A stretch of 64,000 nt of DNA from a virus (Duplodnaviria; Heunggongvirae; Uroviricota; Caudoviricetes), in IMG/VR virus record IMGVR_UViG_3300022701_000176; one strand, given 5' to 3'. The notes below the pieces were generated by a model. That model saw only the letters and a list, made by a program, of their open reading frames with translations, was not told the DNA's origin and made no database searches. Every line of letters starts with the position of its first letter. Within the stretch, counting starts at the first letter, position 1. Both the position numbers and the translations under genes were made by a program. Shown here piece by piece: positions 5,129 to 51,258 of this stretch.

Positions 5129-5212
5129 TCTTTAATTCTCCTCTCATTATATAATTTACAAAAAATTAAATTACGTTTAATGTGGGGGTTCTTGGCAATA
5201 ATAATGATTATT

Positions 5213-9522: not shown

Positions 9523-9566
9523 AAAAAAGAGAAAATGGACTATACATCCATAATCTCTTTTTTTGT
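9523..9566. terminator. terminator hairpin with ATGGACTATACATCCAT core (copy 1)
   Basis: AAGAGAAAATGG actatacat CCATAATCTCTT followed by TTTTTTT. The same loop and stem core recurs at 12834-12875. Confidence 0.45.
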
Positions 9567-9572
9567 ATATTA

Positions 9573-10187: not shown

Positions 10188-10221
10188 CTTTAATTCTCCT
10201 TTTTTTGGTAAAAGTTAATGG

Positions 10222-10262
10222 TTAAAATTTAATATATATAATCACAATATATATTAAATAAT
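10222..10262. promoter_or_regulatory. divergent pair of conserved promoter motifs
   Basis: The minus strand reads gtgattATATATATTAAATTTTAACC and the plus strand reads caatATATATTAAATAATAACtaatt, arranged back to back between divergent genes. Confidence 0.4.
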
Positions 10263-10300
10263 AACTAATTAACCACTTAAAATTAAAAGGAGATTTTATT

Positions 10301-22204: not shown

Positions 22205-22290
22205 TATTTATTTAAAAATTGGCTAAATAATAATCACATAGATTAGAATATCATTTTAATCTATGTGATTATTTGAAAGGAGATATGGTT

Positions 22291-32911: not shown

Positions 32912-35506
32912 TTAAGATTTAAGATCTTCTTCATAGATGCCATCTGGTTTATTGGTAGATACAAATACATCACCCAATATATCTTTAGCGGCATCGATGT
33001 CTATATTTGATAATGCTTTGCGTACAACGTCTACTATGCTATCACCACCAAGAATACCACGTAACGATACATGTTTCGCCATATCTGTAGCAACATGTCG
33101 ATTTGAAATTGCTTGTATCACACCCATAAGTTCTGGTGATAATGCGCCGACTTGTTTGACAGCAGCAGCAGTTGCAATATTTATCAATTTTTCTCTCAGT
33201 TCTTGACGTATTGCTTCGTTACTTATTGCTTCAGCATTATTCTCTTTGGTTCTACTCAGTTCATGTTGAAAGATCACATCTTTAACTTTTTCAAGTTCAA
33301 TTCTGAAATCTTCATGTGCTTTCTGTTCAGTCTGCTGTGATTGAATATTGTGCATATTTAATTTCAATCTATTTTCAGATATTACCAATTGTTGATCAGT
33401 TTCTATATCACTAATATTCTTAGTTAATTCAGACTGTTGATTTTTCAACTGTTCTAATTGAGTAAGTTTATCATTCTTTTCTGTAATGAGTTTTATTTCA
33501 AACTCATTTGAAATGATATCAGTATTTAAATCATCTAATTGTCCGATAAATGAGCTATCTTCGAATCTTACTTTATTTATTTGGATAGCTTTTATTTCCA
33601 TATTATTATCATCAAATTTATTTCTTGCATCAGTTATGATTAGATCATTTAATATAGTAGTATAATTATAATACATATCTTCTGATGATGTTTCTAATAC
33701 TTTATTCTTGATTAATGATCTCATTTGTTCACAGAGAAAGAGAGGATAATTTGGAATGGAAAACCATTTAATTGGATCATCTCCAGTAAAGTTTACATGA
33801 TATCTTAATCTTATATTTACAATTTGACCATCAGAAGTTATACATTCAAATATGTCAGATATAAAATTATTCTTAATTTGGAGATAAACATCATTAACAA
33901 TATTATGTTCAGTTTTACATTTGCCAGTTGAAAATGTCAATATTTCTGGTAATTCATCAAATTTGAGATTATATGGTTTGTTTCCAACTACAACATGTCT
34001 ATCCCCACTCTCAGAAGCGATACACATGGCGTAGTTTTCAAATACACGAATATGAGGTGCACCAGAGAATTTGGTATCATCGAGTGATATCTCTCTTGGT
34101 TTCGTATATTTGACTTTACGTCGAATGGTTCTACCAAGATGTTCATCTGATATACCACCCTTTGATACTCCTCTTGTTCTAACTGAATCAGCAGATAAAT
34201 ATTGATCTTCTGTTCCAAGTTTATAATTTTTAAGAACTTCTGTGAATGAATCTTCGGATACCATTCCAGTATGTTGGTCTTTCGAAGATTTCCATAATTT
34301 CCTATTATATTCTATTACTTCATCATTTCCGGGATACAACAATTTTGCAGTTTTGATCGGAAGTGCTCTTCTTACAAACACTTCTTCGATGGGATTAAGA
34401 AGAGTGAGTGGTTTTGATTCATTTCTTATGTGTCCAGTTATTCTATCCATTACATATCGTTCGTGTCCAGGCTGAATAACTGTACCAAAATGAATCGGTT
34501 CACTATTTTCACCATATCTTATTATCGATTCATTTATATTTGGGAAATATATTCTTTGATCTGTAATGAATCTTTCATCTCCCATTTTATATTCAATACC
34601 ATTTTCATCAGTATATGATTCATTTACTTTTACATGAATACCTGCAACTGGTGGCAGTTCAAGAGCTTTATGAATGATATTTCCATTCTTGTCTGTTTCA
34701 AACTCTTCAGTTGGTTCAGGGACTACAATTACACCATTTGCATTCCCTTTTATGATTCGTGTCTTACCTGATTCATCTCTCAACATTACACATTGTATAG
34801 CTTCAAGACTTACGGCATTTCTTATATATTTATCGATACCATCATTATCATTATTCTTATATTCTGGATTTATTAATACTTGGAATCCATCATATGGAAT
34901 AAAGAACGGGAAATCAGAACCAGTTACATTAAATTTAACACCATTTTCAATATGATTTTCAAGTTTAAATTCTTCGTCTGGAATATCACGTTGAATAACT
35001 TTTTTGATGAAATATTGAATATTTTCATCTTCATATTTCAACGCTTTCAATGCTTGATCACGATCATATACTTCTATGACCAAGTAATTGTCGGTTCTCT
35101 GCTTATGACCTCTGATTCTCGTTGCAGATTGTCCGGGCCACAGTGGTTTATCGAATGGTCCACGAATGACAATTTTTTTACCAACCATTAATTTCATGTC
35201 AGCCGATCTACATTGAACTGAGTCTTTTTCTGGAGGGAATTCATCGTTTTCTGATGGATTTAGAAGCACAATATAGTATCCATTTGGAGCAACTATATTT
35301 TTAGTCATTGCTTCTCTGATAGATGCTTTTCTAAAATTTGTTCCATCTCCTGCTTTAGGGTCATATATAACCGGCACTTGACTTTTTTCAATTGTAACCT
35401 TCTTATCGCCTACAGTCATAGTTATAACTGCTGTAGATACATCCAATATACATAATGAAGATCCAAGAGGAACGGGAACTTCGCTGTTTTTGTAATCATC
35501 ATTCAT
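32912..35506 (-). CDS. large virion structural protein candidate (function unknown; C-terminal coiled coil)
   Basis: 864-aa ORF with its own terminator and a C-terminal heptad-rich region. No catalytic motif was recognised. Confidence 0.3.
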   Translation of the reverse strand: MNDDYKNSEVPVPLGSSLCILDVSTAVITMTVGDKKVTIEKSQVPVIYDPKAGDGTNFRKASIREAMTKNIVAPNGYYIVLLNPSENDEFPPEKDSVQCRSADMKLMVGKKIVIRGPFDKPLWPGQSATRIRGHKQRTDNYLVIEVYDRDQALKALKYEDENIQYFIKKVIQRDIPDEEFKLENHIENGVKFNVTGSDFPFFIPYDGFQVLINPEYKNNDNDGIDKYIRNAVSLEAIQCVMLRDESGKTRIIKGNANGVIVVPEPTEEFETDKNGNIIHKALELPPVAGIHVKVNESYTDENGIEYKMGDERFITDQRIYFPNINESIIRYGENSEPIHFGTVIQPGHERYVMDRITGHIRNESKPLTLLNPIEEVFVRRALPIKTAKLLYPGNDEVIEYNRKLWKSSKDQHTGMVSEDSFTEVLKNYKLGTEDQYLSADSVRTRGVSKGGISDEHLGRTIRRKVKYTKPREISLDDTKFSGAPHIRVFENYAMCIASESGDRHVVVGNKPYNLKFDELPEILTFSTGKCKTEHNIVNDVYLQIKNNFISDIFECITSDGQIVNIRLRYHVNFTGDDPIKWFSIPNYPLFLCEQMRSLIKNKVLETSSEDMYYNYTTILNDLIITDARNKFDDNNMEIKAIQINKVRFEDSSFIGQLDDLNTDIISNEFEIKLITEKNDKLTQLEQLKNQQSELTKNISDIETDQQLVISENRLKLNMHNIQSQQTEQKAHEDFRIELEKVKDVIFQHELSRTKENNAEAISNEAIRQELREKLINIATAAAVKQVGALSPELMGVIQAISNRHVATDMAKHVSLRGILGGDSIVDVVRKALSNIDIDAAKDILGDVFVSTNKPDGIYEEDLKS

Positions 35507-36027: not shown

Positions 36028-36218
36028 TTGATTGATTCCTTTTTCTCGTATGTTATACAATTTGAACACACACTATATTTATCAATATATTTTTTATCGA
36101 TTGGATATAATCGACTTTTACAGCGAGGGCAATACATATTGTCTCCTATATTATAATATAATAAATATATAACTTTATTATATTCCCAAGTCTCCTCTAA
36201 ATGCTCGTATCTTAGCAT
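36003..36218 (-). CDS. small zinc-ribbon protein
   Basis: CPRCKS...CSNC. Confidence 0.4.
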   Translation of the reverse strand: MLRYEHLEETWEYNKVIYLLYYNIGDNMYCPRCKSRLYPIDKKYIDKYSVCSNCITYEKKESIKWKQKQKK

Positions 36219-37419
36219 TACATACCCAAAGAACAGTATCTCTTTTCTTAAAAGTTAACATTGAACTACTAACTATATAGTTACCATCAAAATGTATGTA
36301 TTGGACAACGCGAGGCTTAAGTTGGATTGCTATTCCAACTTTTAATAGATTTTCTATTTTTAAATTTCTATCAAGAGTAAATTCTATTTCAGACATACTT
36401 GATATTTTACGTGCTATTCTTGATTTGAATATTGCTTCATTTTCTTCATTTCCAATTTCATTAATAGTATGATAATTAACACGATCTCCACTATTTAGAT
36501 GATGATACATCGTCTTGTTTTCAGCTACAGCATTACTTGAAAATACATCTTCTGATGATAGATTAACCCAACTGTATAATTTATTTATTGGTTTTGATAA
36601 AAACTTATTTTCAAATGCAGTTTGAGCAGTATCAAGAGTACCTCTCCCTACATGATTTATAGTTGATTGTGTATAAAATGTATCACCATAGCCAGTCTCT
36701 TCCATTATATCACTATCTGATTCACCTTGTGATAATTGATATACTTTATAAGCTATATTTCTCTGTTGTGATAAATCCCACATACAGAATACATTATCAT
36801 GTCTGCATTGAAAAAATAATGGGCCATTGTATACCCCAACACCTTCTCCATACATATCTTTTATTTTATTATCACTACCATCTATATATCTTATACAATC
36901 TATAAGAGACATTGGTGGTACAATATATTGAATATATGCTTCATTATTTTTATTCGTTTCATTTATATTTAATGTTATACTAGATACAAAATCTGATATT
37001 ATTGATTTTATCATTTCTATTGGTAATATATTTGATTGGAATAATTTATTGACAGTTGTTGTCATGAATTGAAACGGTTCTTTTGTAACACATACAAAAG
37101 TTACTCGTTCTTGAGTTGGGTGGGATGGTTCAATTGTTCCATGTATTTCGATAGGAGCATTTGATTTTAATGCTATTAATGTAAATTCAGTTGTTTCAAC
37201 TGGTTTTCTATCTTCAGTTGTCCAAGTTATAGATAATATTATATCGTTTTTACCAAAAATATCATAGACAGATACACTCTTTAAATCAATATCGAATGTT
37301 AATAAAAAAGTTTGATAAGGAACATTTATAGAGTTAACTATATTTATTTCACTTATGTTATTAGAGATATCAATATCTCCAACAACACAATTTATTCTAT
37401 AATATGCAATAGATTCCAT
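36178..37419 (-). CDS. hypothetical protein (possible structural)
   Basis: 413-aa ORF with a GGACAAAC motif 30 nt upstream. Confidence 0.4.
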   Translation of the reverse strand: MESIAYYRINCVVGDIDISNNISEINIVNSINVPYQTFLLTFDIDLKSVSVYDIFGKNDIILSITWTTEDRKPVETTEFTLIALKSNAPIEIHGTIEPSHPTQERVTFVCVTKEPFQFMTTTVNKLFQSNILPIEMIKSIISDFVSSITLNINETNKNNEAYIQYIVPPMSLIDCIRYIDGSDNKIKDMYGEGVGVYNGPLFFQCRHDNVFCMWDLSQQRNIAYKVYQLSQGESDSDIMEETGYGDTFYTQSTINHVGRGTLDTAQTAFENKFLSKPINKLYSWVNLSSEDVFSSNAVAENKTMYHHLNSGDRVNYHTINEIGNEENEAIFKSRIARKISSMSEIEFTLDRNLKIENLLKVGIAIQLKPRVVQYIHFDGNYIVSSSMLTFKKRDTVLWVCNAKIRAFRGDLGI

Positions 37420-38139: not shown

Positions 38140-38550
38140 TTAAAAATCCGTTAATGCTTGTTTAACGAAATCTTTAATTGACGATTTATCATAGTTGTCG
38201 TTTATATACTTCTCGATCTTATCTTTATCAAGATCTTTATTCGTATGTATGCATAAGATGTTTTTACCCAACATCTTTTCATACACAGCTTTGATTTTCA
38301 TCATTGTCAACTTCTCTTCAATTCCGATTTCATCATTATCTTTTTCATCTGGCGATTCATCGGAGACATTTTTGAGAATTCTCTTCGCCATTATCTCACG
38401 AATTCTTTGAGACTCTAGTAACTCAATATCGTCTACCTTGAATATATGACCATTATCATCTGGCTCATCCAGTTGTTTTAGTATGAATAGAAAATGGTTT
38501 TCATATGTGTTGATGATTTCTTCATTCATTTCTTCTGTTGATTGTCCCAT
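38140..38550 (-). CDS. hypothetical acidic protein
   Basis: 136-aa ORF rich in Asp/Glu, followed at 4 nt by 38555..39994. Confidence 0.4.
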   Translation of the reverse strand: MGQSTEEMNEEIINTYENHFLFILKQLDEPDDNGHIFKVDDIELLESQRIREIMAKRILKNVSDESPDEKDNDEIGIEEKLTMMKIKAVYEKMLGKNILCIHTNKDLDKDKIEKYINDNYDKSSIKDFVKQALTDF

Positions 38551-38554
38551 ATTA

Positions 38555-39994
38555 TTATTTCTCCATTGATTTCGTTATATGGATGGTTTTCGTATCACAA
38601 TCGCCAAGAGTTACATCCTGTCCTCTAAACATACTCCGTTCCGTGATAACCCATGTCATTGGGTACTCTTCCGTCCAATCATAATTATGATAAATCGATT
38701 CAACATCAGATTCGTAATCAGTTAAAAACAATACAGAACTGATCTCAATTTCTTCTGCCAAATCCTCTATACGAGAAAATGGTGGATCATGAGACGTTCC
38801 CCCTCTACCAGTAAATCTTCTTACCTTATCGAACACATCATTTGGTGATGGATCATCGAATAATTCAAATTCATCTTTAACTTTATGATCATGAATTATG
38901 AAGTATAATGATCTGAAATGATTTGCAGAATCACATGATATTCCTAAAAATCGTTTTAAATCATCGTCTGATATCGATGCAGAACAATCGATAACAATGA
39001 TTAACGATCTAACATCATCACCATCTATATATGATGGCAGATATGTTATATTGATATAGGGATTACGAATGGTCCAATCGGGTTCTTCATTTGAAGCAGA
39101 TTGGTATACAAGAGCATTTCTCAAGATCTCATCCCAAGGCAATTTAATCTCAAACAAGTCGTTTAACAATAACACGATATTGGCGGTCATATCACCTTTA
39201 CTTATCATGTCAGAATTCCACAACGCTTTTGCTTGAGATGCCAAGTCTTTTAATATTTCATAAGGCGACTTACCATCACCACTATCGCCATCATCATTAT
39301 CATCATCTTCTCCAGATTCAGATTTTCCATCGATTGCTTTTGAATCATTTGCAATAATCTGGCTTTTTCCATTTTTGTCGGTAATTTTTATTACTTTATA
39401 TTTATTACCGTCTTGATCAGTTATCTCTTCCTCCTTTGCTTTATTTCCATTTCCTAAATCGACTTCATTCCCGCATTCGCCTTTACAACTCTCATCACCA
39501 CATTTACATTCGGCTTGATTAATCATCATATCATATAGTTCTTCAGCCGATATGCCGGAATCTTTACTATGAACATCTTCCAGAAAGAAATGGTTGTCTG
39601 GAAGTTGCATATATCTCATTTGTCTAACTTCTCGATTTGTCACATGATCAATTGCTAAAGCCCAAATCATTGGAATCTTTCCAACACTTCTTTCTATATG
39701 ATTTGAAATAATATGAATTATTTCATGGACAATGATAGCAATTATATTTGATCTGTTGAACTGATCGGTTGCACCGAATACTATTCGTTTCCCATCAGTG
39801 TAGGCTAATCCAGTTACACCAACTACTGCTCTGGTATACGCCTGTAATTCTTTCATATTCATAACAACTTTATCCATACTCATGGATAAAATACCAAAGA
39901 ATTTAAGAGAATTTTTATTCAGCAGTATAATATTCGCTTCTGAAACGAGTTTTTCAAACTCTTTTAATGGTATTGGTTTATATTCAGTTGTCAT
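38555..39994 (-). CDS. von Willebrand factor A (vWA)-domain protein with N-terminal HExxH metallopeptidase-like domain
   Basis: N-terminal IIAIIVHEIIHIISNH (HExxH). C-terminal metal-ion-dependent adhesion site (MIDAS) motifs IIVIDCSASIS (DxSxS), TGRGGTSHD and LFLTDYESD. It overlaps the upstream AAA+ gene by 4 nt. Confidence 0.6.
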   Translation of the reverse strand: MTTEYKPIPLKEFEKLVSEANIILLNKNSLKFFGILSMSMDKVVMNMKELQAYTRAVVGVTGLAYTDGKRIVFGATDQFNRSNIIAIIVHEIIHIISNHIERSVGKIPMIWALAIDHVTNREVRQMRYMQLPDNHFFLEDVHSKDSGISAEELYDMMINQAECKCGDESCKGECGNEVDLGNGNKAKEEEITDQDGNKYKVIKITDKNGKSQIIANDSKAIDGKSESGEDDDNDDGDSGDGKSPYEILKDLASQAKALWNSDMISKGDMTANIVLLLNDLFEIKLPWDEILRNALVYQSASNEEPDWTIRNPYINITYLPSYIDGDDVRSLIIVIDCSASISDDDLKRFLGISCDSANHFRSLYFIIHDHKVKDEFELFDDPSPNDVFDKVRRFTGRGGTSHDPPFSRIEDLAEEIEISSVLFLTDYESDVESIYHNYDWTEEYPMTWVITERSMFRGQDVTLGDCDTKTIHITKSMEK

Positions 39995-41190
39995 TTTACT
40001 TCTCCCAATATCCCACTCGTCTTCATGAATTCTGCTAATTTTTTCAGCGGAAGAATATTCTTCGAAGCGAGTGTTTTTATAAGATCATGACCTTTTCCCT
40101 TGCCATGAACGTATTTTATCGAACAGATCATTAACTCTTTATTCGACTTATGAATCTTATTCAAAATATCTACGTAGATTTTTGAATAATATACTCTTTC
40201 TTTTTCATTATCTGTCGAATAATAGTGGGAATAATATGCATCAGTTACTGCATATATAAATGCAAATCGTTCAACTGATTTAACAGGAATATCAAACTGT
40301 CCTGTTGCAAAGATCGCTTTCGTATCAAACTGAGAATATATGTCTGTATAGATCTTGAACTTCGCTGCTGCTTCATGTCCAACGTATGCAGCATAAATGG
40401 AACTTTGCGTTGATCCAGACAATTTTTTCCACATATCTCTTTTCTGAAGAGCTTGAATCTTCGTTGAGAGATATGTCCAAGAACGAGGAGAGGGCCAGGG
40501 GTCAACCATTGATTCTTCACCCTGAAAGAATTCTCTATTTGACATATCTTCCAAAAACGAGATAATCGGACCATATACTTCATTTTTGAAAGCAAATTTA
40601 TCACGCCAATTCTTATACGATGGTTTGATATAATATTTGGCAACTCGGTTCATCACTGCACCGAATTGGGGTTTGGAGCCAGACAGTGCTTTATCATTGC
40701 CAGCAAGCATTATTAATGTGTCTGCCGGAAACCCTTTACCTCTAATTGTATAATCAGTAAATGCTTCGAATCCGACTGATTGAACTGATTTTGAGGCAAG
40801 ATGCCAATCATCGATTACAATCAAAACTGGTTTTTCTTTACTTAATTCTCTTGCTTCACATATAATATCTGGAATAGACCAGATTGTATGCATTTCTTTT
40901 CTCTTTCCTTCTTCCGATTCAATATGTAAAAAGTCGGGTATACCGCCCAACTCCTCAACTTTCAAGAATCCAGCATTTCGAACGATAAGATGGAAGTTTT
41001 GCTTTTTCGCAAGTTCACGAAGTGATTCAGTTTTACCGGAACCGGGAGGTCCAACGAAATAGTTGATTGCCATTTTTATTTCTGGGTTCTCGATCTTTTC
41101 TTTGTGATCGATAATAGCTATACTAATAGCTTCATGTAAATTAAGAACATGATCACTCATAACAGTACCACTTCTTCCATTTTCAGACAT
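39991..41190 (-). CDS. AAA+ ATPase (MoxR-like)
   Basis: Walker A FVGPPGSGKTESL and Walker B PVLIVIDDWH; translationally coupled to the vWA gene. Confidence 0.65.
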   Translation of the reverse strand: MSENGRSGTVMSDHVLNLHEAISIAIIDHKEKIENPEIKMAINYFVGPPGSGKTESLRELAKKQNFHLIVRNAGFLKVEELGGIPDFLHIESEEGKRKEMHTIWSIPDIICEARELSKEKPVLIVIDDWHLASKSVQSVGFEAFTDYTIRGKGFPADTLIMLAGNDKALSGSKPQFGAVMNRVAKYYIKPSYKNWRDKFAFKNEVYGPIISFLEDMSNREFFQGEESMVDPWPSPRSWTYLSTKIQALQKRDMWKKLSGSTQSSIYAAYVGHEAAAKFKIYTDIYSQFDTKAIFATGQFDIPVKSVERFAFIYAVTDAYYSHYYSTDNEKERVYYSKIYVDILNKIHKSNKELMICSIKYVHGKGKGHDLIKTLASKNILPLKKLAEFMKTSGILGEVK

Positions 41191-41202: not shown

Positions 41203-41949
41203 TTAAATTATTTGCTTAGAATGACAATGTATAGTCAACGTTTCTGCAAAAGGCCATATAAGATCTTTCCACACAAACGATTTGTCGATTTCATTATGAT
41301 CTATAAAATTAAGAGATGATTTATTTATTGTTATGACACTATCATCATATATAAGTGGCATTATCAATTTATCATTCTCTTCTTTTACAAACCATTCGAT
41401 TTTATCAGATGATAATACAACTCGTCTGATTGATTCTAATCCAAATAATATAGACTTCTTAGTTCCGAAATCTATATTTTTAAATAAATCGTAGAATGAA
41501 GTATCAATTGTTCTATTCTTTATACCTTTAACAACGACATCTCCATTCATACATATAGCCATATATGCCGATCTATCTATAGTTATTATTAACTTAGATA
41601 TTATATTTCTCAGTTCTATCGGCATAGTATTCTTTATATTTTTAATTTTTTTATTCGTAACTATTCCATCTTTTGTTCTTATAATTACATCATTTTCCGA
41701 TAGATCATTTGTTTTTATATAATATTCCATTATATATGATGTTACTTTGTTTATGTAAATATTTAATGTTGGATTATCTCTTTGTAATAGTCCAATTTGT
41801 ACAACTCTTGTATTTTTATCTTCATAATTTATACCATTAACGTCCCATCCGATGCTTCTTAGGATATTGTATCCACATGCTCTTACATCATATATGTACA
41901 AATTAGAATATATAAGTGGACCATCTTTTATTATTCTCATTTTAAACAC
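41203..41949 (-). CDS. hypothetical protein
   Basis: 248-aa ORF with no recognised motif. Confidence 0.4.
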   Translation of the reverse strand: MFKMRIIKDGPLIYSNLYIYDVRACGYNILRSIGWDVNGINYEDKNTRVVQIGLLQRDNPTLNIYINKVTSYIMEYYIKTNDLSENDVIIRTKDGIVTNKKIKNIKNTMPIELRNIISKLIITIDRSAYMAICMNGDVVVKGIKNRTIDTSFYDLFKNIDFGTKKSILFGLESIRRVVLSSDKIEWFVKEENDKLIMPLIYDDSVITINKSSLNFIDHNEIDKSFVWKDLIWPFAETLTIHCHSKQII

Positions 41950-42004: not shown

Positions 42005-42790
42005 TTAGCCATTTATGGCATATTGTTGATTGATTGGTCTGTATGATAATTTAGTAATTGTTGTCAATAGCTTTTTTACATAATTAACATCAACCGTCTC
42101 AATCAACGTTTCATTCATAACGTTTAATGCATCTTCTATGCTGATAACTTCGTCATTATCAACCATATTGCGATACTTTGCCCCTATTTTTCTAAACGTT
42201 ATTTTATGGATGTCTGTTAGATTATCGTTTAGTCTATTTGGTTCAAGATGATTATCTTTTCTAAATGACCAAACAACATTCTTTGTCGCTTTAGTTACTA
42301 TCATCTGATAAACACGATCACAAGTTACATCATTGGATCTTTCTATGAATGCAACTATCTTTTTTCCTTTCATCGGATCATATGGGATATATGCAAATAT
42401 TCCATTATCACCATAGTACTGTTTAATCATAAATCCATTATTATGAATCTTCGATTTAGTACTGGTGTATATGTATGTTATTGCATTTTTATTCATAACG
42501 AATGGTATTAATGTGTTGTTATCTGATAAAATCATTCTTGTCTTTTCTTTATTTGAAAATGTCAAATTATCTTTTATCAGTAATTGACCCGTTATATTTG
42601 AATTAATCCCGATACTTGTTAGATCTACTACTTCGAACTCGTTTATATTCTCACAAAACTCATGCCATTTTAAATTTCCCAATTTAAAATCTTGGGAATT
42701 CTGTGATTCAAAAACATTGGTTTGTATGAATTTTATGGATTCTTTATATTTATTTATATTTTTTCTTAATAAATCATAAACAGTAGTCAT
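42005..42790 (-). CDS. hypothetical protein
   Basis: 261-aa ORF with no recognised motif. Confidence 0.4.
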   Translation of the reverse strand: MTTVYDLLRKNINKYKESIKFIQTNVFESQNSQDFKLGNLKWHEFCENINEFEVVDLTSIGINSNITGQLLIKDNLTFSNKEKTRMILSDNNTLIPFVMNKNAITYIYTSTKSKIHNNGFMIKQYYGDNGIFAYIPYDPMKGKKIVAFIERSNDVTCDRVYQMIVTKATKNVVWSFRKDNHLEPNRLNDNLTDIHKITFRKIGAKYRNMVDNDEVISIEDALNVMNETLIETVDVNYVKKLLTTITKLSYRPINQQYAING

Positions 42791-42802: not shown

Positions 42803-43474
42803 TTATATCATAGTGAATTTTCTATTTACGTGAGTCGTAAACTCTTTATTCACATCGAGATTTTTCAAAAAGCTACCTCTCAACGCAATCATCGTAACAC
42901 CATCTGCATGTTCGCCCTGTTCAACTCCCCGTGCACACATACAGTTATGTATTGCTTCAGTAGCAACCCCTAATCCTTCTACGCTCAATTTATCAACCAT
43001 TAGGGATGCCAATATATTTGTAAAGTCTTCTTGAAGTATTGGTGCACGACCAATCATTTTTACAGTTTCTGATATTTTTGATAAACCAGGAACTTTACAT
43101 CGCTTTGGTATATCATGCTGTGTTGGAATATACCCAACCACCACTTTATATCTTACATCTTCGAAGTGATGAGGACACAGGGAGTGGATTCTAATTACTT
43201 GAGATACAATCATTCCATTAAATTGTGTTGGGAATGATTTAGTCTCTAATCCACTGTAATCAAGATTATGATAATCTATTCCAGAACATCGTTCCAATAC
43301 CATTGATTTTGCAATTCGGGTTGGGGTATCTCTGAAATTTTCATCAGATCTCCAATCGACATAAAATGCATCTAATATTGTATTCCATGCATCTTCAATC
43401 ATTGATATTTTAGTTTCATTATCATTATTTGATGGTTTAACGCTACCAAACTTAAATAGATTGTTTTCAGGCAT
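42803..43474 (-). CDS. folE: GTP cyclohydrolase I (FolE)
   Basis: RDTPTRIAKSM (TPxRxAK), SLCPHHFEDV (the CEHH-type zinc site) and HNCMCARGV (HxCMxMRGV). Confidence 0.75.
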   Translation of the reverse strand: MPENNLFKFGSVKPSNNDNETKISMIEDAWNTILDAFYVDWRSDENFRDTPTRIAKSMVLERCSGIDYHNLDYSGLETKSFPTQFNGMIVSQVIRIHSLCPHHFEDVRYKVVVGYIPTQHDIPKRCKVPGLSKISETVKMIGRAPILQEDFTNILASLMVDKLSVEGLGVATEAIHNCMCARGVEQGEHADGVTMIALRGSFLKNLDVNKEFTTHVNRKFTMI

Positions 43475-43489: not shown

Positions 43490-46489
43490 TTAATTTTTTA
43501 TTTTTAAACCAAGTATGTCTAAATATGCTTCTAATAATTTCATACTTTGTGGTCTGTCATCAAATGAATCATCAGATAAGCTTGGATTATTTAATATATC
43601 TTTTGTTAATAATTTATTCTTTAATCCCGGCGAATCACTCTGAACAGTTAACAAATCTCTTAAGAAATTTGTTCCACCATGAGCCAATAAAGCCCACGTT
43701 TCCATCTCACCAAATCTATGACCACCACTCCTTGATTTACCACCAAGTGGTTGAAGTGTCTTTTTACTATATGGTCCAATACTTCTTGCTGCCATTTTTT
43801 CAGATGATCGATGTATTAATTTAGTAAAGAATATATATCCAGATACGATAAATCTTTTTATATTCATTCCTGTTTCTGGATCAAATATTTCATATCTAAA
43901 TTCCGAATCAACAATAAACATTAAATTGAATAAATCATATATAGATATTGATTGGAATGGTGGTTGTATGAAATATAAGTTTTCTTCTGGATCATTGTTA
44001 TTATTATAATTTTCTATAAATTCAGATCTTATTTTATTTTTTATCCATTCATCATCTGTTTTATCAATTATATCAAGAACTTGATCCAAAAGTTCTAATT
44101 TATCATCTAAACCATCAATTTCTTTTAATTTCAATTTTAATTGATGAAGACATTCGCTCATGTGTAATTCATATAATTGACCAATATTCATTCTTGATAT
44201 AATACCAAGTGGATTTATAATAATATCTAAATTCCTTCCATCTGGTAATTTTGGCATTTTATTATCTGGAATTATTCTTGATATTATACCTTTGTTACCG
44301 TGTCTGTTTGCTACTTTATCACCTTCTCCTATTTGTTGTTCATATACTGCTTGCATTTTTACAAGTATCCCGCCAAATCGTTTTCCTTTGTGTGCATATT
44401 TCCCTTTTTGATTAACACAATCTAATCGAGATAGCCCATTTTTAGTTACAAATGCATTCACATCATCTTTATTGTCCATAAATCTCTCAAGCCGACTATA
44501 TAATTGAATATAATTATCAGTTTGAGTAATCATCATCCTTTCTATAAAATCATGAAATTCTTTTATTTGTTTATTCCAACTATTTGGATATATTTCAATA
44601 TCGGTTATCGTACAATCAACTGGAGCAGTTGGTTCAAATGGTTCAATATTTATTGATTCAAAACCATCTTCATCGTCAATAGTTTTAACTCTTGCATAAA
44701 TCTGACCCTTTTTAAGTTTATCACCAACTGAAAATAGTGGCATATATTCTTCATCGATTAAACTTAGGAGGACTTGTCCAGGTTCTATGCTAAAAGTAAG
44801 ATCAATACTATGTAATGAAGTGAATTTTTTTCTTGTTGATTCACTTATTACAATACCATCTTCATAGTTCCAACCTTTCCATATAGCTATACCTGTTAAT
44901 AAATTATGACCAAGTTTCAATTCACCATTATCAAGCGTTATAGATTCACATAAAATATCACCCTTTTTAAATTCTTCTCCAACTTTATAGTAACATTTTA
45001 TGTAATCAACGGTGTTTTGATACATGTTTCTATAATTTATATTTATAACTTCTGATGTTTTATCAACATACATTGCAATTACAAATTTATTATTGGCATG
45101 AACAATAGCACCATCATTTTTTGCAATATGGGTAAAAGTGGTATGCTCAATATTCATACTTTCTAAGCCACTTCGTATAAATGGTTTCTCAGAATCTTTT
45201 AATATTATTGATTGTTTCAATTGATTTGATGCCATTTGAAGTCGAATCTGGTCATCATTTTTAAGAAATGGAACAAGAGATATAGGGTAAGATGTTATAA
45301 CTTCTTGATCTGGAGTTCCAAATATTCCATTTTCTCCAATATCTATTGTTGGAATCATATTTAATATAACACCACAACCTTCCCGGTCTGGTGTATCTGC
45401 TGGACATACATATCCAAACTGACTATGATGAATATCTCTAAGATGGTTTGGAACATTTTCTTTCTTAAATCCACCTGGACCAGTTAGAGACAATTGACAC
45501 ATGGAAGCGATTTCTGTGACAGGATTTATTGGAAAGTTAAAATGAACAATACTACTCACATTACAACCATCCAATATAATATTTTTGTTTATCTTAAATT
45601 TCGTATTTTTTGGATCGTTGTTTATTGTTACAATCATATCATAAAATTTTTTGACCAATGGAAACAGTATATATTCTGATAATCTTATTCTTTTTCTTTT
45701 GAATGTTTTATCAGATTTAGAACCATCGTATATTCCCTGCAACAATTCGAATAGTATTGATTCAGTTTTCATTAATTTTTTGCTGAATATATCTATTTCA
45801 TATGCTGCTTTTAACGAAAATAAAACACTTTTCCCTTTTTTATATTTATCTATATTGGCAGAAGAGTATAATTTTCCTATATTTGTTGTTCTCTCCTTTT
45901 TGCTTATATCGTATAATTTTTTACACTCTACTATAAGATTATTTACATATTGATTATTTGGTCTTCCAGCTATAAACTCTTCAATTTCTTCTTTTGTATG
46001 AAATGTTGAAAGAAGAAGAGCAAGAGATATTTTTTTATTAAAAAGAGTTACTATATAATTCTCTCTATCTCTTATATTATTGAGATTAAGTTCTATATTT
46101 ATCGTATTTGTTCTTAATTTCAATAAACCATTTCGATATATAATTGGAAAATCGTATAATTGAAAGATTGGTATCTTCAGATATCCACCAATATAGAAAA
46201 AATGATTTTCTATGATATCAGGTATTTTAATATCATAATTAAGATCTTTTTTCTTTCGTGTATTTCCATTTTTTAAAGTAGCTCTAAGTATCGAATATAT
46301 ATTATATTTCAATTCTTCAAGACGCTTTGCATGAGAATTTATCCAATCACATTTCTCAAAAGTCCAGTTATTGATTAAAGATACATTTTCGAATATTTCA
46401 GTTATTAACCGTTTTATTCGATCTTTATCCCACTCGATACTTCTTCTAAAAAATATATCATTCTTCTTGTATCTTTTATCCATAATCAT
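43490..46489 (-). CDS. DNA-directed RNA polymerase beta subunit (divergent; C-terminal two-thirds clearly homologous)
   Basis: GPGGFKKENVPNHLRDIHHSQFGYVCPADTPDREGCGVILNM (beta region D), NRHGNKGIISRIIPDNKMPKLPDGRNLDIIINPLGIISRMNIGQLYELH, and GGKSRSGGHRFGEMETWALLAHGG. Confidence 0.8.
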   Translation of the reverse strand: MIMDKRYKKNDIFFRRSIEWDKDRIKRLITEIFENVSLINNWTFEKCDWINSHAKRLEELKYNIYSILRATLKNGNTRKKKDLNYDIKIPDIIENHFFYIGGYLKIPIFQLYDFPIIYRNGLLKLRTNTINIELNLNNIRDRENYIVTLFNKKISLALLLSTFHTKEEIEEFIAGRPNNQYVNNLIVECKKLYDISKKERTTNIGKLYSSANIDKYKKGKSVLFSLKAAYEIDIFSKKLMKTESILFELLQGIYDGSKSDKTFKRKRIRLSEYILFPLVKKFYDMIVTINNDPKNTKFKINKNIILDGCNVSSIVHFNFPINPVTEIASMCQLSLTGPGGFKKENVPNHLRDIHHSQFGYVCPADTPDREGCGVILNMIPTIDIGENGIFGTPDQEVITSYPISLVPFLKNDDQIRLQMASNQLKQSIILKDSEKPFIRSGLESMNIEHTTFTHIAKNDGAIVHANNKFVIAMYVDKTSEVININYRNMYQNTVDYIKCYYKVGEEFKKGDILCESITLDNGELKLGHNLLTGIAIWKGWNYEDGIVISESTRKKFTSLHSIDLTFSIEPGQVLLSLIDEEYMPLFSVGDKLKKGQIYARVKTIDDEDGFESINIEPFEPTAPVDCTITDIEIYPNSWNKQIKEFHDFIERMMITQTDNYIQLYSRLERFMDNKDDVNAFVTKNGLSRLDCVNQKGKYAHKGKRFGGILVKMQAVYEQQIGEGDKVANRHGNKGIISRIIPDNKMPKLPDGRNLDIIINPLGIISRMNIGQLYELHMSECLHQLKLKLKEIDGLDDKLELLDQVLDIIDKTDDEWIKNKIRSEFIENYNNNNDPEENLYFIQPPFQSISIYDLFNLMFIVDSEFRYEIFDPETGMNIKRFIVSGYIFFTKLIHRSSEKMAARSIGPYSKKTLQPLGGKSRSGGHRFGEMETWALLAHGGTNFLRDLLTVQSDSPGLKNKLLTKDILNNPSLSDDSFDDRPQSMKLLEAYLDILGLKIKN

Positions 46490-46765: not shown

Positions 46766-49700
46766 TTAATATTTAAATAATTCAGTCAGTGCTGATGAAT
46801 TATCAGATCTATTATTTATAAGACCTTCCAACAATTTAGCTTTCAAATTAGCAAACATAGCTCCAAGTAACCATGATGTTCGTGATGGTATCTGAAGAAT
46901 ACTCACGAATTCATAATCAACATCATTTCTGTTTGAAACTAATCTCCAAAGATCATTATCAACCCACATCATAGCAGATACAATTATTTCATAATGAACC
47001 ATATGTATATTTTTATATTCTCCGAATATACTATACATGAATTTGAGTAAATGTATTGGTTTACTTATATTCTCATCTCCATCTATTTGTTTTAATTTTG
47101 TTGGATTATGAAATAATTTATTTGCTATATTAATACCACTAATAATATCTTCATTGTGAGAACCACCATCATCTGAATCTTCATCACTTACTCTATTTAC
47201 AACACCGCTATTGTGAACAAATACACCAGAAGATACTGGAAAATTATGATATTCATTATCAACTTCTAAATCATAAAATTCTTCTTCTTTATCTAATTCT
47301 ATAAATTCTATATTATTAACTTTATGATTGTATCCGCATGGGATGTCATGGTTTGGATCGGGGATAGGAGCATAATCATTATATAATTTATTTCTAAGAT
47401 AATCTGGCGACCACTTGAGAAGATGTTCTCTATCATGTATTTTTCGACCATACATTTCTTTATTAATTTTATCAAATTGACTCAAACATAATCTAATATT
47501 GTTATCTTTCATATGTTGAAGTATTTTATCCATCATTGTTTCTGCAATACGTTGTTGTTTTGATCGATTATCTTCAACTCGATCATCAACAAGATGAGAC
47601 AGAAAATCTGGAGAATGTTTAAGAAGACCTTCTATCGTCTTCCTACTTAACGCTTTTGGATAAACAATTTCATTAGCTTTATCAAATGATGTATAAGTAA
47701 GAGGCATATCGAGTTCTTCCATCTTAGCAAGAACTTTTTTCATACGAGATTCACATTGAAGTTGTTGTCTCGATTTACCAGTTACTTTCCCTTTACTGTC
47801 ACTACTCACTATTCGTCTTTCACCACCAACTGGTTCGAGATGATTAAGATAATCTGGTGATAATTCTAACATCTTTTCTCTATGATGTGTTTTATCACCA
47901 TATATTTCTCTATTTGATTTATCAAAACTACCATATGTCATTGGAAGATTATTTTCTTCCATGTGTTTAAGAACTCTATCCATTCGTGATTCAGCATGAA
48001 GTTGTTGACGAGGTTTTTTAACTATATCATCAATAAATCCAATCATTAAATCTTCATGATCTTTTATTGCATATTTATATGTTGGATATCTTAATCCAGC
48101 AGATTTAAAATATTTTTCTCGAATCATATTAAAGTTCGTAGATGTTTTTTCTAACTTAAGATCAGATATTAATTTTAATATGTTTTCAATACATGTACGC
48201 CTTACTTTAATTGATATTTGTTTACTTTTTTCAGGATTATCAATGTGCCATTGTTTACGTGTTTCTGATGCTTTTATTCTTGCATCCTCTCCATGCATTT
48301 TTATATGTTCATCTGCATCTATTATTTGTATATTTGTAGGATAATCATTTTTAATATCATTATCGATATGATGTCTATGTATATTATTAGTTTTATTTAT
48401 TTTCTCACAATCTGAGTGGTCTGATGATAAATGGAATATTAAATCTCTCCTATAACCATTTGCTTTTGGTTCTTTATAATTTTGTTGAATTCTTCTTCTT
48501 CCCTCCATTCTACTACTAAGTGTACCATATTCTAATAGATAACAAGGCATTAAAGAATCCCATTTCTTTAAATCTTTTGCTTTCTTATATGTACCATTAC
48601 GCATCATCATTTCATGATCAGGTGTAACTTTTATTATTTTCTTATTGTCTAAAGTTATTTTTACCATCTTATTCGTTATATGATCTTTAAACACATTCAA
48701 TACTTTAGATACAACTATTTTTCCATCTGGTGAACATGAAAAAGTATAAATATCTTCACTATTAATATTTATACGTTCATATAATTCATCCATTCGTATA
48801 TGATTATTGTTTACATCTATTATACAAGTGTCGCGTGAAAGGCTTTCATGGAAGGTACGCAGTACAAGCTGCACGAGTCTCTCCCCGATTGAGTGAACAG
48901 CCATTATACCAATTTCATCGCTATGAAGTATTTTATGAAGATTACCATAACAAGTTTTACATATTTTTTCAGATTCACAATAAATTGGAGATCTTAGTTT
49001 TATATTTTTTCCAATTATATCATTTATGTTCGAAGTTCTAATTGGAATAACATTACCATTATCATCCACATAATTTCTCCAGAGTAGAACTCTTGCCATC
49101 TTTTTATCTCGTACATATATCTCCAAATAATCTTTAGTACAACAATCAATTTTATTGTGATCTATTTGATAATTAATACAACTGTATATTAATTGACGTG
49201 TTAAATATCCAGAATCACCAGTTGATAATGCTGTATCCAATAATCCCTTTCTTGCACCATAACACGATTCAAAAAATTCTTTCTGATTCAACCCTTCCAC
49301 CATACTACTTCGAATCAGATCTGGCCTAATATTTCCTTTTGAATCTGATACATAGCCCCTTGTGAATACAAGTTGCTTTGCTTGTTTCCATGAACCTCTC
49401 GCCCCCGACTTTATATACTGTGAGAATGGTAAACTATCTAATAATTCATGTACTTCTTCTGAATTTTCGATAATATTCATATCATCTACAATATTACCAG
49501 TTAATTCTTTATTCTTCTTCAATAATTCTTCTTTGAATATATCATCTAATCCAAGTGTATATCCTCGAATAGTTGACAATGAAAAACCAAGATTTTTAAT
49601 TTTATCCAGTGTTTTTATAACTTTAGATGGTGGATATGATAATACAATTTTATTTAATAAATTAAGTAATTTTCTCTTATCAATAACATCATCTATAATT

Positions 49701-50128
49701 GGATAATCTTCTGGTAAGCATTTATTAAATAATGCTCTCCCTCTTGATAATTGTACCCCTTTATATTCAACTAATTCAGTCAGCATATCATCAGTTGTTT
49801 CACCATTATTAATTTGAGTAGCACCATATATTCCAAGAATAATGTCTTGATTGGGGCGAGGTACAAGAGTAATATCTGTTTGAGATAATAAATTATTCCA
49901 TATTCCTATTCTTTCTTTCACATCATTTTTTGATTCTTCTGTAATTGGAAAGTATAATGCCATACAATCTTGTACATATACACCATCGTGAGTTGAAAAT
50001 GTAAAATAATCTTCAACAGTGAAATCATATCCAATTGTTTTAGATGGATCTTTTTTAATAGAGATAGAAGAAACAGGAATTAAATTATATTTTTCTTCCA
50101 ATTCTTTTTTTGATATTTTATTCGTCAT
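46766..50128 (-). CDS. RNA polymerase beta-prime C-terminal portion, carrying an Int-C-like N-terminus and a contiguous intein
   Basis: Extein motifs: CMALYFPITEES...LVPRPNQDIILGIYGAT (E. coli QMAVHVP...IIVPSQDVVLGLYYMT), GARKGLLDTALSTGDSGYLTRQLI, IGERLVQLVLRTFH (trigger loop), and C-terminal HYEIIVSAMM / SRTSWLLGAMFANLK. Confidence 0.8.
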   Translation of the reverse strand: MTNKISKKELEEKYNLIPVSSISIKKDPSKTIGYDFTVEDYFTFSTHDGVYVQDCMALYFPITEESKNDVKERIGIWNNLLSQTDITLVPRPNQDIILGIYGATQINNGETTDDMLTELVEYKGVQLSRGRALFNKCLPEDYPIIDDVIDKRKLLNLLNKIVLSYPPSKVIKTLDKIKNLGFSLSTIRGYTLGLDDIFKEELLKKNKELTGNIVDDMNIIENSEEVHELLDSLPFSQYIKSGARGSWKQAKQLVFTRGYVSDSKGNIRPDLIRSSMVEGLNQKEFFESCYGARKGLLDTALSTGDSGYLTRQLIYSCINYQIDHNKIDCCTKDYLEIYVRDKKMARVLLWRNYVDDNGNVIPIRTSNINDIIGKNIKLRSPIYCESEKICKTCYGNLHKILHSDEIGIMAVHSIGERLVQLVLRTFHESLSRDTCIIDVNNNHIRMDELYERININSEDIYTFSCSPDGKIVVSKVLNVFKDHITNKMVKITLDNKKIIKVTPDHEMMMRNGTYKKAKDLKKWDSLMPCYLLEYGTLSSRMEGRRRIQQNYKEPKANGYRRDLIFHLSSDHSDCEKINKTNNIHRHHIDNDIKNDYPTNIQIIDADEHIKMHGEDARIKASETRKQWHIDNPEKSKQISIKVRRTCIENILKLISDLKLEKTSTNFNMIREKYFKSAGLRYPTYKYAIKDHEDLMIGFIDDIVKKPRQQLHAESRMDRVLKHMEENNLPMTYGSFDKSNREIYGDKTHHREKMLELSPDYLNHLEPVGGERRIVSSDSKGKVTGKSRQQLQCESRMKKVLAKMEELDMPLTYTSFDKANEIVYPKALSRKTIEGLLKHSPDFLSHLVDDRVEDNRSKQQRIAETMMDKILQHMKDNNIRLCLSQFDKINKEMYGRKIHDREHLLKWSPDYLRNKLYNDYAPIPDPNHDIPCGYNHKVNNIEFIELDKEEEFYDLEVDNEYHNFPVSSGVFVHNSGVVNRVSDEDSDDGGSHNEDIISGINIANKLFHNPTKLKQIDGDENISKPIHLLKFMYSIFGEYKNIHMVHYEIIVSAMMWVDNDLWRLVSNRNDVDYEFVSILQIPSRTSWLLGAMFANLKAKLLEGLINNRSDNSSALTELFKY
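47210..48826 (-). mobile_element. intein (about 539 aa) with HNH endonuclease domain and three tandem ~58-aa repeats, inserted after RTFHESLSRDT
   Basis: Hint block A CIIDVNNNHIRM, block B VTPDHEMMM, and C-terminal block G SSGVFVHN followed by +1 Ser. Internal HRHHIDNDIKND...HIKMHGED (HNH-like). Three repeats: QQLHAESRMDRVLKHMEENNLPMTYGSFDKSNREIYG, QQLQCESRMKKVLAKMEELDMPLTYTSFDKANEIVYP, QQRIAETMMDKILQHMKDNNIRLCLSQFDKINKEMYG. Confidence 0.6.
49967..50128 (-). mobile_element. Int-C-like segment (C-terminal half of a split intein) at the N-terminus of the beta-prime C ORF
   Basis: 54 aa ending ...IGYDFTVEDYFTFSTHDGVYVQD (block F-like YDFTVED; block G-like GVYVQD with Gln-Asp in place of His-Asn), immediately followed by Cys+1 (CMALYFP). 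Confidence 0.45.
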
Positions 50129-50145: not shown

Positions 50146-51258
50146 TTAAGCTGTTAATTTTTCTTTTTCTTCTACCAGTTTAAAATTATATTCATTTAAC
50201 TTTCGTTTTATATAATTTAAATTCTTATCTGAAACATCATGTAATGGATTTAATTTCCAACAATTTGTTTCATAATTTATTAATGATAAAGAACATATAT
50301 ATTTTTCATTTGTAATTATAACAAATGCATTATAACCATTATCTATTCCAGATTTTATCTCATATCTAATATTTCTATTCTTTTCAAAATGTAATAATTC
50401 AAAATGTTTTACTTCGATTAACCATTTTGAATTATTATTTTTAGAATCTGTTATCATGATATCTGGAAACCAATAATGATTAATTCCATTTTCATCATAA
50501 TAAGATAATCTTATTTTCGGTTGTGGAGTTATAATATGTGAACCATAATTTTTATATAGATAATTAAGAATAAATGTTTCTGATCCTTGTACATTTACTA
50601 TTTTGCCATCTGGTGTCTCATATTCATCACTATTTGATTCCGTTATCTTAGTACGAATATCTAAATCTTGACTTACATTTTCAACACCATACTTTTTATA
50701 AACACCATCTTTTTGAAGTTGTTTACCAGCTTCAGATTGCCACGGGTAATCTGTTCCCCAATTTTTTCTTGAAGTTTCAATCTTCTTTTGTTTAATATCT
50801 TCAAATTGAGAAATATTATCAACTCCATACTTCTTTTTTATCGTCTTTTTTGCAGTATCATGATAAGCTGATTTTAAAGATCCAAAATTCTTCTTAGCAG
50901 TTTTTTGCCGTTTAGCATTAACTTCTTTTAAACTCTGATAACATTTTTTATTACCACATGATATATTGAATCCTTCCGTAGCACTCTTAAATCCACATGG
51001 TTTACCACATTTACACATTGGAATATCATTTTCAGTATGAATATCATTCATTATACAATAAAGACGATAAGAGAAAGGTGCTCTTGGAACTTTTTTAGAC
51101 AATTTAAAAAATCGATCTAAATGTTTAGTTACTTCAGTTACTTCATTAAGAATAACTTTTGTTCGACTTAAACTTCTTATCATATTAGTTAAATCATTAT
51201 TAAATTTAGTTTCTAACTGATTTTCAAAATAATCTTTCAGTTCATTAAGAGTTCTCAT
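50146..51258 (-). CDS. free-standing endonuclease-like protein (zinc finger, YGV(E/D)N repeats, C-terminal PD-(D/E)xK motif)
   Basis: CKCGKPCG...CGNKKC; repeated KKYGVDNISQ / KKYGVENVSQ; YWFPDIMITD...WLIEVKHFE (PD...ExK). It lies exactly between the two beta-prime halves. Confidence 0.45.
   Translation of the reverse strand: MRTLNELKDYFENQLETKFNNDLTNMIRSLSRTKVILNEVTEVTKHLDRFFKLSKKVPRAPFSYRLYCIMNDIHTENDIPMCKCGKPCGFKSATEGFNISCGNKKCYQSLKEVNAKRQKTAKKNFGSLKSAYHDTAKKTIKKKYGVDNISQFEDIKQKKIETSRKNWGTDYPWQSEAGKQLQKDGVYKKYGVENVSQDLDIRTKITESNSDEYETPDGKIVNVQGSETFILNYLYKNYGSHIITPQPKIRLSYYDENGINHYWFPDIMITDSKNNNSKWLIEVKHFELLHFEKNRNIRYEIKSGIDNGYNAFVIITNEKYICSLSLINYETNCWKLNPLHDVSDKNLNYIKRKLNEYNFKLVEEKEKLTA

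Follow-up and report, generated by a model that had tools for sequence, protein, structure and literature searches.

An AAA+ ATPase gene coupled to a metallopeptidase-like vWA gene in an uncultured jumbo phage

The gene pair and its products

The window analysed here is a stretch of 64,000 nucleotides (nt) from a virus of the class Caudoviricetes (IMG/VR record IMGVR_UViG_3300022701_000176). Its minus strand encodes an AAA+ ATPase of 399 amino acids (aa) (39991..41190; 45.4 kDa, pI 8.9) and, immediately downstream, a 479-aa protein (38555..39994; 54.4 kDa, pI 4.65) in which a metallopeptidase-like DUF2201_N domain precedes a von Willebrand factor A (vWA) domain of the DUF2201 family. The ATPase is homologous to gp24 of phage N4 and belongs to PHROG 1297, and its partner is homologous to N4 gp25 and belongs to PHROG 1314. 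The pair is a divergent member of a phage module that is widespread, catalogued and already in print. The two genes share the start/stop sequence ATGA (39991..39994, minus strand), which indicates translational coupling, and the genes overlap by the same 4 nt in cyanophage S-TIM5 and in one further locus (L080). An AGGAG sequence lies 7 nt 5' of the ATPase ATG, and a GGAG-type ribosome-binding sequence for the vWA gene lies within the end of the upstream ATPase gene. A preliminary description, made from the sequence alone, had reported the two open reading frames (ORFs) with these sizes, on this strand and with this overlap, and had quoted several motifs; all of this was reproduced, and every motif position given below was verified by translating the exact coordinates. 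Because of Pfam scores above the cut-offs, PHROG matches and motif residues that are invariant or nearly so, the pair stands far above chance.

With its AAA+ core motifs all intact, the 399-aa protein is predicted to be an active ATPase. The Walker A motif (P-loop) GPPGSGKT (residues 47-54; 41029..41052, minus strand like all features of the pair) includes G50 and K53, which are invariant across 41 relatives. The helix-2 beta-hairpin (residues 85-104; 40879..40938) comes just after a conserved E-[DE]-L-G-G-I-P motif, and G82, G83, I84 and P85 are each conserved in at least 90% of the relatives. Walker B reads LIVIDD (residues 123-128; 40807..40824), with WH next, to residue 130. Position 127 is Asp in 39 of the 41 relatives, and position 128 is always acidic (Asp in 27, the window protein included, and Glu in 14). 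The sensor 1 residue Asn165 (40696-40698) and the arginine finger Arg182 (40645-40647) are invariant in the same set. The lid-domain motif PWPSPRSW holds the sensor 2 Arg, R236 (40483..40485), which is kept together with P235 in 40 of the 41 relatives; we take R236 in this setting to represent the MoxR-like 'SPR' motif. A structural model built with 41 homologues has a predicted local distance difference test score (pLDDT) of 90.9. In this model, DSSP assigns strands 85-91 and 98-104 between beta2 and alpha2, as well as a short hairpin (148-153) ahead of the sensor-1 strand (158-164). The remainder, residues ~190-399, is a long helical C-terminal region.

The preliminary description had called the ATPase MoxR-type. 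We took the MoxR family as in Snider and Houry 2006, including the CbbQ/GvpN/NorQ (CGN) branch, and as Pfam AAA_3 and AAA_5. On this basis the assignment is supported in the broad sense of AAA_5, i.e. the dynein/midasin/MoxR-CGN branch, with the caveat that strict profile membership is uncertain: in Pfam the window protein itself matches only the generic AAA model PF00004, with a score of 21.2 bits that equals the cut-off. The placement in AAA_5 follows from the family profile, the Pfam matches of the 41 relatives (14 to AAA_5, two to AAA_3 and two to bpMoxR), the two hairpin inserts of the pLDDT-91 model and the obligate vWA partner. In the AAA+ classification of Iyer et al. 2004, both hairpin inserts are said to define the clade of MoxR, midasin, dynein and the chelatases. 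When the ATPase family profile was searched against the PDB, midasin was the best match (1e-29), in three stretches of this multi-module protein and from the P-loop through the arginine finger. The next matches were Clp and p97, mostly in the P-loop region, and no solved bacterial MoxR protein was among the 60 best PDB matches listed. TAL-effector structures returned by a search with the single ATPase sequence were discarded as artefacts, as their scores were summed over repeats that each had E >100. NCBIfam gave nothing meaningful for the pair.

In the 479-aa protein, residues 59-301 (39092..39820) match PF13203 (DUF2201_N, 'putative metallopeptidase domain') with 57.3 bits against a cut-off of 23.2 (2.4e-15), and residues 331-430 (38705..39004) match PF09967 (DUF2201, 'VWA-like domain') with 33.0 bits against a cut-off of 26.4 (7.4e-8). 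This is the domain order at which the preliminary description had guessed. The first domain contains HEIIHIISNH (residues 90-99; 39698..39727), a putative zinc site with its catalytic Glu, and WALAIDHVTN (residues 111-120; 39635..39664), which corresponds to a motif W-N-x-A-x-D-[YH]-x-x-N. Across 80 distinct viral homologues, eight residues of this domain (H90, E91, H94, H99, R102, D116, N120 and Y154) never vary, and W111 is kept in 79 of them. D116 is a candidate for the third metal ligand.

A search of the PDB with the single 479-aa sequence gave nothing, and the vWA domain dominates the match list of the full model. The N-terminal fold was probed with a domain-only profile (A4; residues 1-162, 26 diverse members), which matched zincin peptidases only, with E from 2.4e-4 to 0.2. 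The best matches were selecase MJ1213 (2.4e-4), an M48 peptidase (1.4e-3) and BepA (5.5e-3), followed by projannalysin, HtpX and Ste24. The alignments to these minigluzincin and M48-type peptidases span the edge strand and the HExxH helix, with the pattern 'xxLAHExxHxxxxH', and the model of the 479-aa protein has strands 64-66 and 70-75 followed by a helix (81-96) that bears HEIIH. The HExxH segment recognised in the preliminary description thus does align to a metallopeptidase-like family, both in the Pfam match and in the profile search. The likeness to the M48 type is limited to ~50 residues; the window protein has no membrane anchor and its domain is fused to vWA. Where the M48 peptidases have a Glu as third zinc ligand, the window protein has the downstream motif with D116. 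We regard the N-terminal domain as zincin-like and its peptidase activity as putative.

The zincin-like domain is interrupted by an insert (residues 163-243; 39266..39508) that opens with a CxCx4Cx3C cluster, continues as a small beta-meander and ends in an acidic Gly/Asp-rich tail. Acidic residues account for 22 of its 81 positions. An AlphaFold2 model of the whole protein (24 homologues; mean pLDDT 78) is confident except for this insert, in which pLDDT is low at 163-175 and 222-240 and strands are found at 177-214. The insert is lineage-specific: its length varies between homologues, where the alignment columns are gapped, and it is missing from compact relatives of ~380 aa. The Cys cluster that opens it (CKCGDESCKGEC; residues 163-174, with Cys at 163, 165, 170 and 174; 39473-39508, minus strand) is not conserved in the homologues, and it might be a small metal-binding knuckle or might be meaningless.

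The vWA domain has a complete metal ion-dependent adhesion site (MIDAS), composed of DCSAS (residues 336-340, with D336, S338 and S340; 38975-38989), GRGGT (residues 396-400, with T400; 38795-38809) and TD (residues 425-426, with D426; 38717-38722). These five residues are invariant in the 80 viral homologues, and the site is predicted from the sequence to bind a metal and a carboxylate. The model of the domain superposes on vWA domains with their Rossmann-like fold, the MIDAS domains of NorD and midasin among them. The MIDAS noted in the preliminary description thus stands up in alignment as well as in structure. The full-length matches of the 479-aa model in BFVD included proteins of N4-like phages, a 'Metallopeptidase' of cyanophage S-TIM5 and a protein of Bacillus phage PBS1.

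A MoxR-like AAA+ protein and a partner with a C-terminal vWA domain also describe CobS and CobT of the aerobic cobaltochelatase, and the pair could be read as auxiliary metabolic genes of this kind, as in cyanophages and other marine phages. A CobT-like phage protein does appear in the BFVD list (rank 42, E 5.3e-4), and the AAA+ homologue in Pseudomonas jumbo phage PA5oct has a faint match to a PHROG for 'porphyrin biosynthesis' (2.3e-6). However, neither a CobT nor a CobS family is among the Pfam matches listed (E<=0.01) for either protein, and the partner has the DUF2201_N HExxH domain in place of the CobT N-terminal region. Its length of 479 aa also differs from the 607 aa of the CobT-like protein of Gordonia phage GMA7. 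We give the cobaltochelatase reading almost no credence and rejected it on domain content.

Distribution of the pair among phages

Both proteins belong to families that are already in Pfam and PHROGs. The ATPase matches PHROG 1297 ('ATPase') at 1.2e-30 and the 479-aa protein matches PHROG 1314 at 7.8e-41. By tblastn against phage records, the ATPase was found in 47 records and its partner, at a relaxed E, in 109, mostly of N4-like phages. In LUZ7, the features that they hit are labelled 'N4 gp24-like protein' and 'N4 gp25-like protein'. A HMMER search of 1.84 billion representative proteins (50%-identity clusters) returned 26,098 matches with E<=1e-3, of which 6,992 had E<=1e-30. A relative of the vWA protein is present on at least 313 IMG/VR contigs, and pairing was counted in 80 loci fetched from these data. 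An AAA+ gene lies on the same strand and within ~5 kb of the vWA gene in 76 of the 80; the remaining four contigs end just upstream.

The same arrangement was seen in each of four annotated phages that were inspected, in which an AAA_5-type ATPase gene is followed on the same strand by a gene for a DUF2201_N+DUF2201 protein. The two genes are 11 nt apart in Erwinia phage Pastis (Schitoviridae), overlap by 4 nt in cyanophage S-TIM5, where genes for Hsp20 and a structural protein adjoin, and are separated by three genes in Thermus phage phiFa; the fourth phage is the 469-kb Sinorhizobium jumbo phage Phosso. PA5oct (287 kb) encodes the ATPase as gp335 (locus L093, 5079-6194; hhalign E 1e-38; PHROG 1297) and the peptidase-vWA partner as gp340 (9081-10265 of the same locus; PHROG 1314, 1e-108). 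Together, the carriers infect or derive from enterobacteria, Pseudomonas, cyanobacteria, Thermus, rhizobia and marine contigs, and both the partner and the gene order are kept across this range.

PHROG 1314 bears the name 'HNH endonuclease', as do many RefSeq records; existing annotations also use 'homing endonuclease' for the 479-aa protein and 'DnaA protein', 'NTPase' or 'DNA repair ATPase' for the AAA+ protein. Taken literally, these labels would make the pair a nucleic-acid enzyme or a replication factor, and replication genes do recur among its neighbours. Against such a role, Pfam detects no HNH or nuclease domain, the zincin-like and vWA domains cover the whole length of the 479-aa protein, and no clamp-loader or initiator protein comes near midasin as a match to the AAA+ profile. 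A nuclease or replication function is very improbable, and it was rejected on domain content. The endonuclease label looks like a mis-annotation propagated through RefSeq and PHROGs: in PA5oct, a true homing endonuclease gene is inserted between gp335 and gp340 and adjoins the vWA gene. The label on the vWA protein should be corrected in the many database records that carry it.

The closest relatives of the pair, with ~33-41% identity, are on metagenomic contigs of 150-306 kb. In these contigs the genes for RNA polymerase beta' and beta, GTP cyclohydrolase I (FolE), two proteins without assigned function, the ATPase, the vWA protein and a 413-438-aa protein form a syntenic block. A scan of bacterial and archaeal genomes with a closer alignment (A5) found only four distant contigs of metagenome-assembled genomes, and so provided neither a clue to the host nor prophage copies of this clade.

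A third gene, for a protein of ~316 aa, goes with the pair in 41 of the viral loci fetched; its place is between the AAA+ and vWA genes in at least 34 of these (e.g. locus L028, 5380-6330, plus strand). Its product matches DUF3150 at 22.6 bits, under the cut-off of 24.9, and has no PHROG match. With the pair it would make a ternary version of the module. The third component was not found in the window (best hmmsearch E 0.87), and hhalign of the families of three neighbouring genes (261, 248 and 413 aa) against the ~316-aa family gave probabilities <1%.

Proposed function

MoxR-vWA pairs are known from bacteria and an archaeal virus, and for phages the pair is on record in the literature. N4-like phages have 14 core genes, and gp24 (AAA ATPase) and gp25 (vWFA) of N4 are among them (PMC4193335, 2014; PMC2784036, 2009). 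They represent both protein families of the window in the same order and on the same strand, with the ATPase first, at ~21-31% identity. Both proteins of the window are longer than these counterparts, with 399 aa for the ATPase (~345 aa there) and 479 aa for the vWA protein (~383 aa there), and the extra length of the latter is the acidic, Cys-containing insert in its peptidase-like domain. N4 is of the podovirus type, whereas the window derives from a jumbo phage with a multisubunit RNA polymerase. Among jumbo phages, Iyer, Anantharaman, Krishnan, Burroughs and Aravind (2021; PMC7824862) described a metallopeptidase-vWA fusion with a MoxR ATPase in their 'group 2.2' (ASV44729.1 / ASV44728.2) and proposed for it a role in virion assembly with proteolytic processing. 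The phage of the window belongs to a different, uncultured lineage, with an unsplit RNA polymerase beta, an intein-bearing split beta' and genes for 7-deazaguanine. Phosso and PA5oct are cultured jumbo phages with such a pair.

As possibilities, the preliminary description had named chaperone-like action, virion or enzyme maturation, counter-defence and a regulated protease, and for jumbo phages this idea was already in print (PMC7824862). We propose that the two proteins work together as the two components of a MoxR-vWA machine, which uses ATP to remodel proteins and whose vWA cofactor carries a zinc endopeptidase-like domain. We put the probability of this biochemical mechanism, and of nothing beyond it, at roughly 0.55. 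The proposal starts from the coupling of the genes, the folds, the intact catalytic and metal motifs, their conservation and the obligate pairing across phages. As to ring formation, a physical contact of the two proteins, proteolysis and what the target is, we reason by analogy with NorQ/NorD, CbbQ/CbbO, RavA/ViaA, midasin and p618/p892 from Acidianus two-tailed virus (ATV). The 399-aa AAA+ protein would form a ring, probably a hexamer, on which the 479-aa partner would dock. Through a divalent cation, the MIDAS of the partner would bind an acidic side chain of a specific target, and ATP hydrolysis would pull or twist the complex and thereby remodel the target. The N-terminal HExxH domain might then cleave the target at a defined site, or release it. 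The role of the pair would be catalytic rather than that of a major structural component of the particle.

Among viral MoxR-vWA pairs, experiments exist only for that of ATV, in which the vWA protein p892 binds the MoxR protein p618 strongly and raises its ATPase activity; a chaperone role in tail development was assigned to the two (PMC4124505). In BFVD, ATV ORF892 also matches the vWA domain of the window by structure (E 2.7e-5). The ATV pair differs in that it has no peptidase domain according to Iyer et al. (PMC7824862), belongs to an archaeal virus and includes p618 as a major virion component. For NorQ/NorD, CbbQ/CbbO, RavA/ViaA and midasin (Rea1/Mdn1), the Pfam descriptions and abstracts consulted mention no zincin domain in the partners. 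These systems act on respiratory enzymes, on enzymes of carbon fixation or on pre-ribosomes. The window ATPase differs from these by its long helical C-terminal region and by Asp, not Glu, after the Walker B Asp. NorD has a 'finger' that enters the NorQ pore (PMC13036017), and no equivalent of it was visible in the window model.

NorQ-NorD and other MoxR-vWA pairs remodel their targets, and the best-understood bacterial pairs serve in metal insertion or active-site remodelling (PMC9976466, PMC13036017). The window pair could likewise be a chaperone for metal insertion or cofactor maturation rather than a protease, as NorQ/NorD, CoxD/CoxE and BchI/BchD are. It would then supply an enzyme of the phage or the host with a metal, or open the active site of that enzyme, and the invariant His/Asp cluster of the N-terminal domain would hold the metal for delivery and not catalyse hydrolysis. 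In favour of this, FolE, a metalloenzyme, is encoded three genes upstream (42803-43474, minus strand) and lies near the pair in 11 of 88 clustered loci, the window included. However, these co-occurrences come mostly from one syntenic clade of jumbo phages and are not independent, and most carriers, for example the N4-like phages, have no obvious metalloenzyme client adjoining the pair. Moreover, the HExxH Glu, E91, is as invariant as the histidines, which favours catalysis over mere metal binding; a protein that served only to carry metal could do without it. The N-terminal profile also matches bona fide peptidases (selecase, M48, BepA and HtpX) through the strand and the active-site helix. 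We consider a metal chaperone without peptidase activity unlikely.

As to the target of the remodelling machine, a phage protein that needs assembly or maturation is our tentative suggestion. It would most likely be phage-encoded and matured or assembled in middle to late infection, such as a component of the virion or one packaged in it. The core status of gp24 and gp25 in N4-like phages (PMC4193335) points to a basic function in the life cycle and not an accessory one, and in N4-like roseophages genes for virion proteins adjoin the pair, which weakly favours assembly or maturation. The Hsp20 and structural genes beside the pair in S-TIM5 are a further weak hint, and so is a virion proteome, a kind of data to which the preliminary description had pointed as a check. 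In PA5oct, gp335 carries the GenBank note 'ESI-MS/MS' (electrospray ionization tandem mass spectrometry), i.e. it was detected in purified particles. The vWA homologue gp340 has no such note.

Several observations weigh against the proposed mechanism and this choice of target. The window Walker B has Asp128 where the classical motif has the catalytic Glu, which may mean slow hydrolysis. For the third zinc ligand, H99 and D116 are both invariant and both candidates. A close homologue (P0017) has lost HExxH and kept the MIDAS; thus not every lineage needs the peptidase activity. The PA5oct particle proteome also holds 'virion-unrelated enzymes', which makes the detection of gp335 weak evidence, and no gp24 or gp25 homologue was among the 13 virion proteins found in roseophages RPP1 and RLP1. 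In the window, the pair lies between the RNA polymerase and FolE genes and genes without assigned function, and not within a recognisable structural module. In other viral contigs, primase-helicase, DNA polymerase A, exonuclease and terminase genes are the recurrent neighbours, and overall the usual neighbours of the pair are genes of replication, transcription and nucleotide metabolism. N4 gp24 and gp25 are middle genes (PMC4193335, PMC2784036). A full-text literature search found no functional study of DUF2201, COG3864/TM0930 or N4 gp24/gp25.

That the N4 genes are expressed among the early or middle ones (PMC4193335) and that the pair sits in a non-structural setting in the window would also suit an effector of host takeover or counter-defence, whose MIDAS captures a host defence or stress factor that the AAA+ and peptidase parts inactivate. 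Conflict systems of bacteria, too, have MoxR-vWA pairs at their core (Kaur et al. 2020, PMC7159879). In these vWA-MoxR ternary systems, the MoxR-vWA core is sometimes joined by a third gene (VMAP, iSTAND, FtsH or beta-propeller). The viral ~316-aa protein is none of these, with its weak DUF3150 match only; the window has no such third gene, and only two of the 41 ATPase relatives touch bpMoxR. PADLOC gave only a marginal IetA P-loop match for the ATPase (0.0021) and nothing for the vWA protein, i.e. no match of weight, and no known anti-defence gene is linked to the pair within the window. Anti-defence genes are typically accessory and patchy, whereas this pair belongs to the core of a whole phage family and keeps its order across hosts. 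A takeover or counter-defence effector therefore seems improbable to us.

Returning to the remodelling machine with a peptidase-like cofactor, the pair may even represent a distinct kind of AAA+ protease, in which a vWA cofactor that can detach would hold both the peptidase and the MIDAS recognition module. In FtsH, Lon, ClpXP and HslUV, by contrast, the peptidase is fused to the ATPase ring or stacked under it. Such a design would have been kept from N4-like podoviruses to jumbo phages, in binary and in ternary (~316-aa, DUF3150-like) versions. We regard this extension as speculative and would not yet rely on it. If it is true, some phage protein, such as one packaged in the virion or ejected, would undergo an essential maturation cleavage that has so far escaped notice.

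Thus the families (Pfam and PHROGs), the jumbo-phage fusion (2021) and the N4-like core pair (PMC2784036, PMC4193335) were already known. The pair is nevertheless one of the few universally conserved phage gene pairs without a functional study, and its active sites are strictly conserved. N4, LUZ7 and PA5oct are tractable carriers for genetics and substrate trapping.

Genome setting

Sequences identical to both proteins are encoded on a 201,166-bp metagenome contig of the Joint Genome Institute (JGI). The source is an uncultured jumbo phage, and the neighbouring genes fit this origin. The window is AT-rich, with a G+C content of ~25-37% in 2-kb windows, and none of 50,697 phage records matched the region at the DNA level. 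Upstream of the pair and on the same strand lie the genes for an unsplit RNA polymerase beta (43490-46489), which is ~24-33% identical to any phage or bacterial beta in our collection, and for a split beta' (46766-50128 and 51245-52843). A DUF7487 gene (50146-51258, minus strand) lies between the two beta' halves. The C-terminal part of beta' contains an intein (Intein_splicing, 2.4e-17, residues 441-973). On the plus strand, the window encodes a fusion of a glutamine amidotransferase (GATase) with QueC (22273-23733) and an N6/N4 DNA methylase (28287-29333), which together with FolE suggest 7-deazaguanine modification of the DNA.

Three genes on the minus strand are syntenic with the pair in all the closest jumbo-phage contigs (L005-L012) and are candidate clients or partners of it. 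Their products have 413 aa (36178-37419), 248 aa (41203-41949) and 261 aa (42005-42790). None of them has a Pfam match, and the sole PHROG match, of the 248-aa protein to a family without assigned function, is marginal (0.0005). A further small ORF (38140..38550, minus strand; 136 aa, pI 4.67) starts 4 nt past the stop codon of the vWA gene. No homology at BLAST level was found for it, nor any Pfam or PHROG match. Small genes (137-145 aa) also lie directly 3' of the vWA gene in two related jumbo-phage contigs (L005 and L006). The 136-aa ORF is tightly coupled to the pair and is a candidate member of the system. A scan for promoters and terminators was uninformative (51 promoter-like sites against 58.6 expected).

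Outside this neighbourhood, the window encodes an 864-aa protein (32912-35506, minus strand) whose residues 546-648 match the Pfam model MVP_shoulder (shoulder domain of the major vault protein; 2.5e-10), a putative vault-like or SPFH-like domain. In the phage collection, its only relatives are in LR756500, LR756501 and LR756503, which are huge uncultured phages of 462-735 kb, with 30-33% identity over 82-93% of its length. A class-3 lipase gene (4275-5147, minus strand; 2.7e-25) and a gene for a ThiF-family (E1-like) protein (58806-59819, minus strand; 5.9e-16) are also present. Both the coding strand and the GC skew flip sign at ~16 kb and ~32.5 kb, and these positions mark the borders of divergently and convergently transcribed gene blocks.

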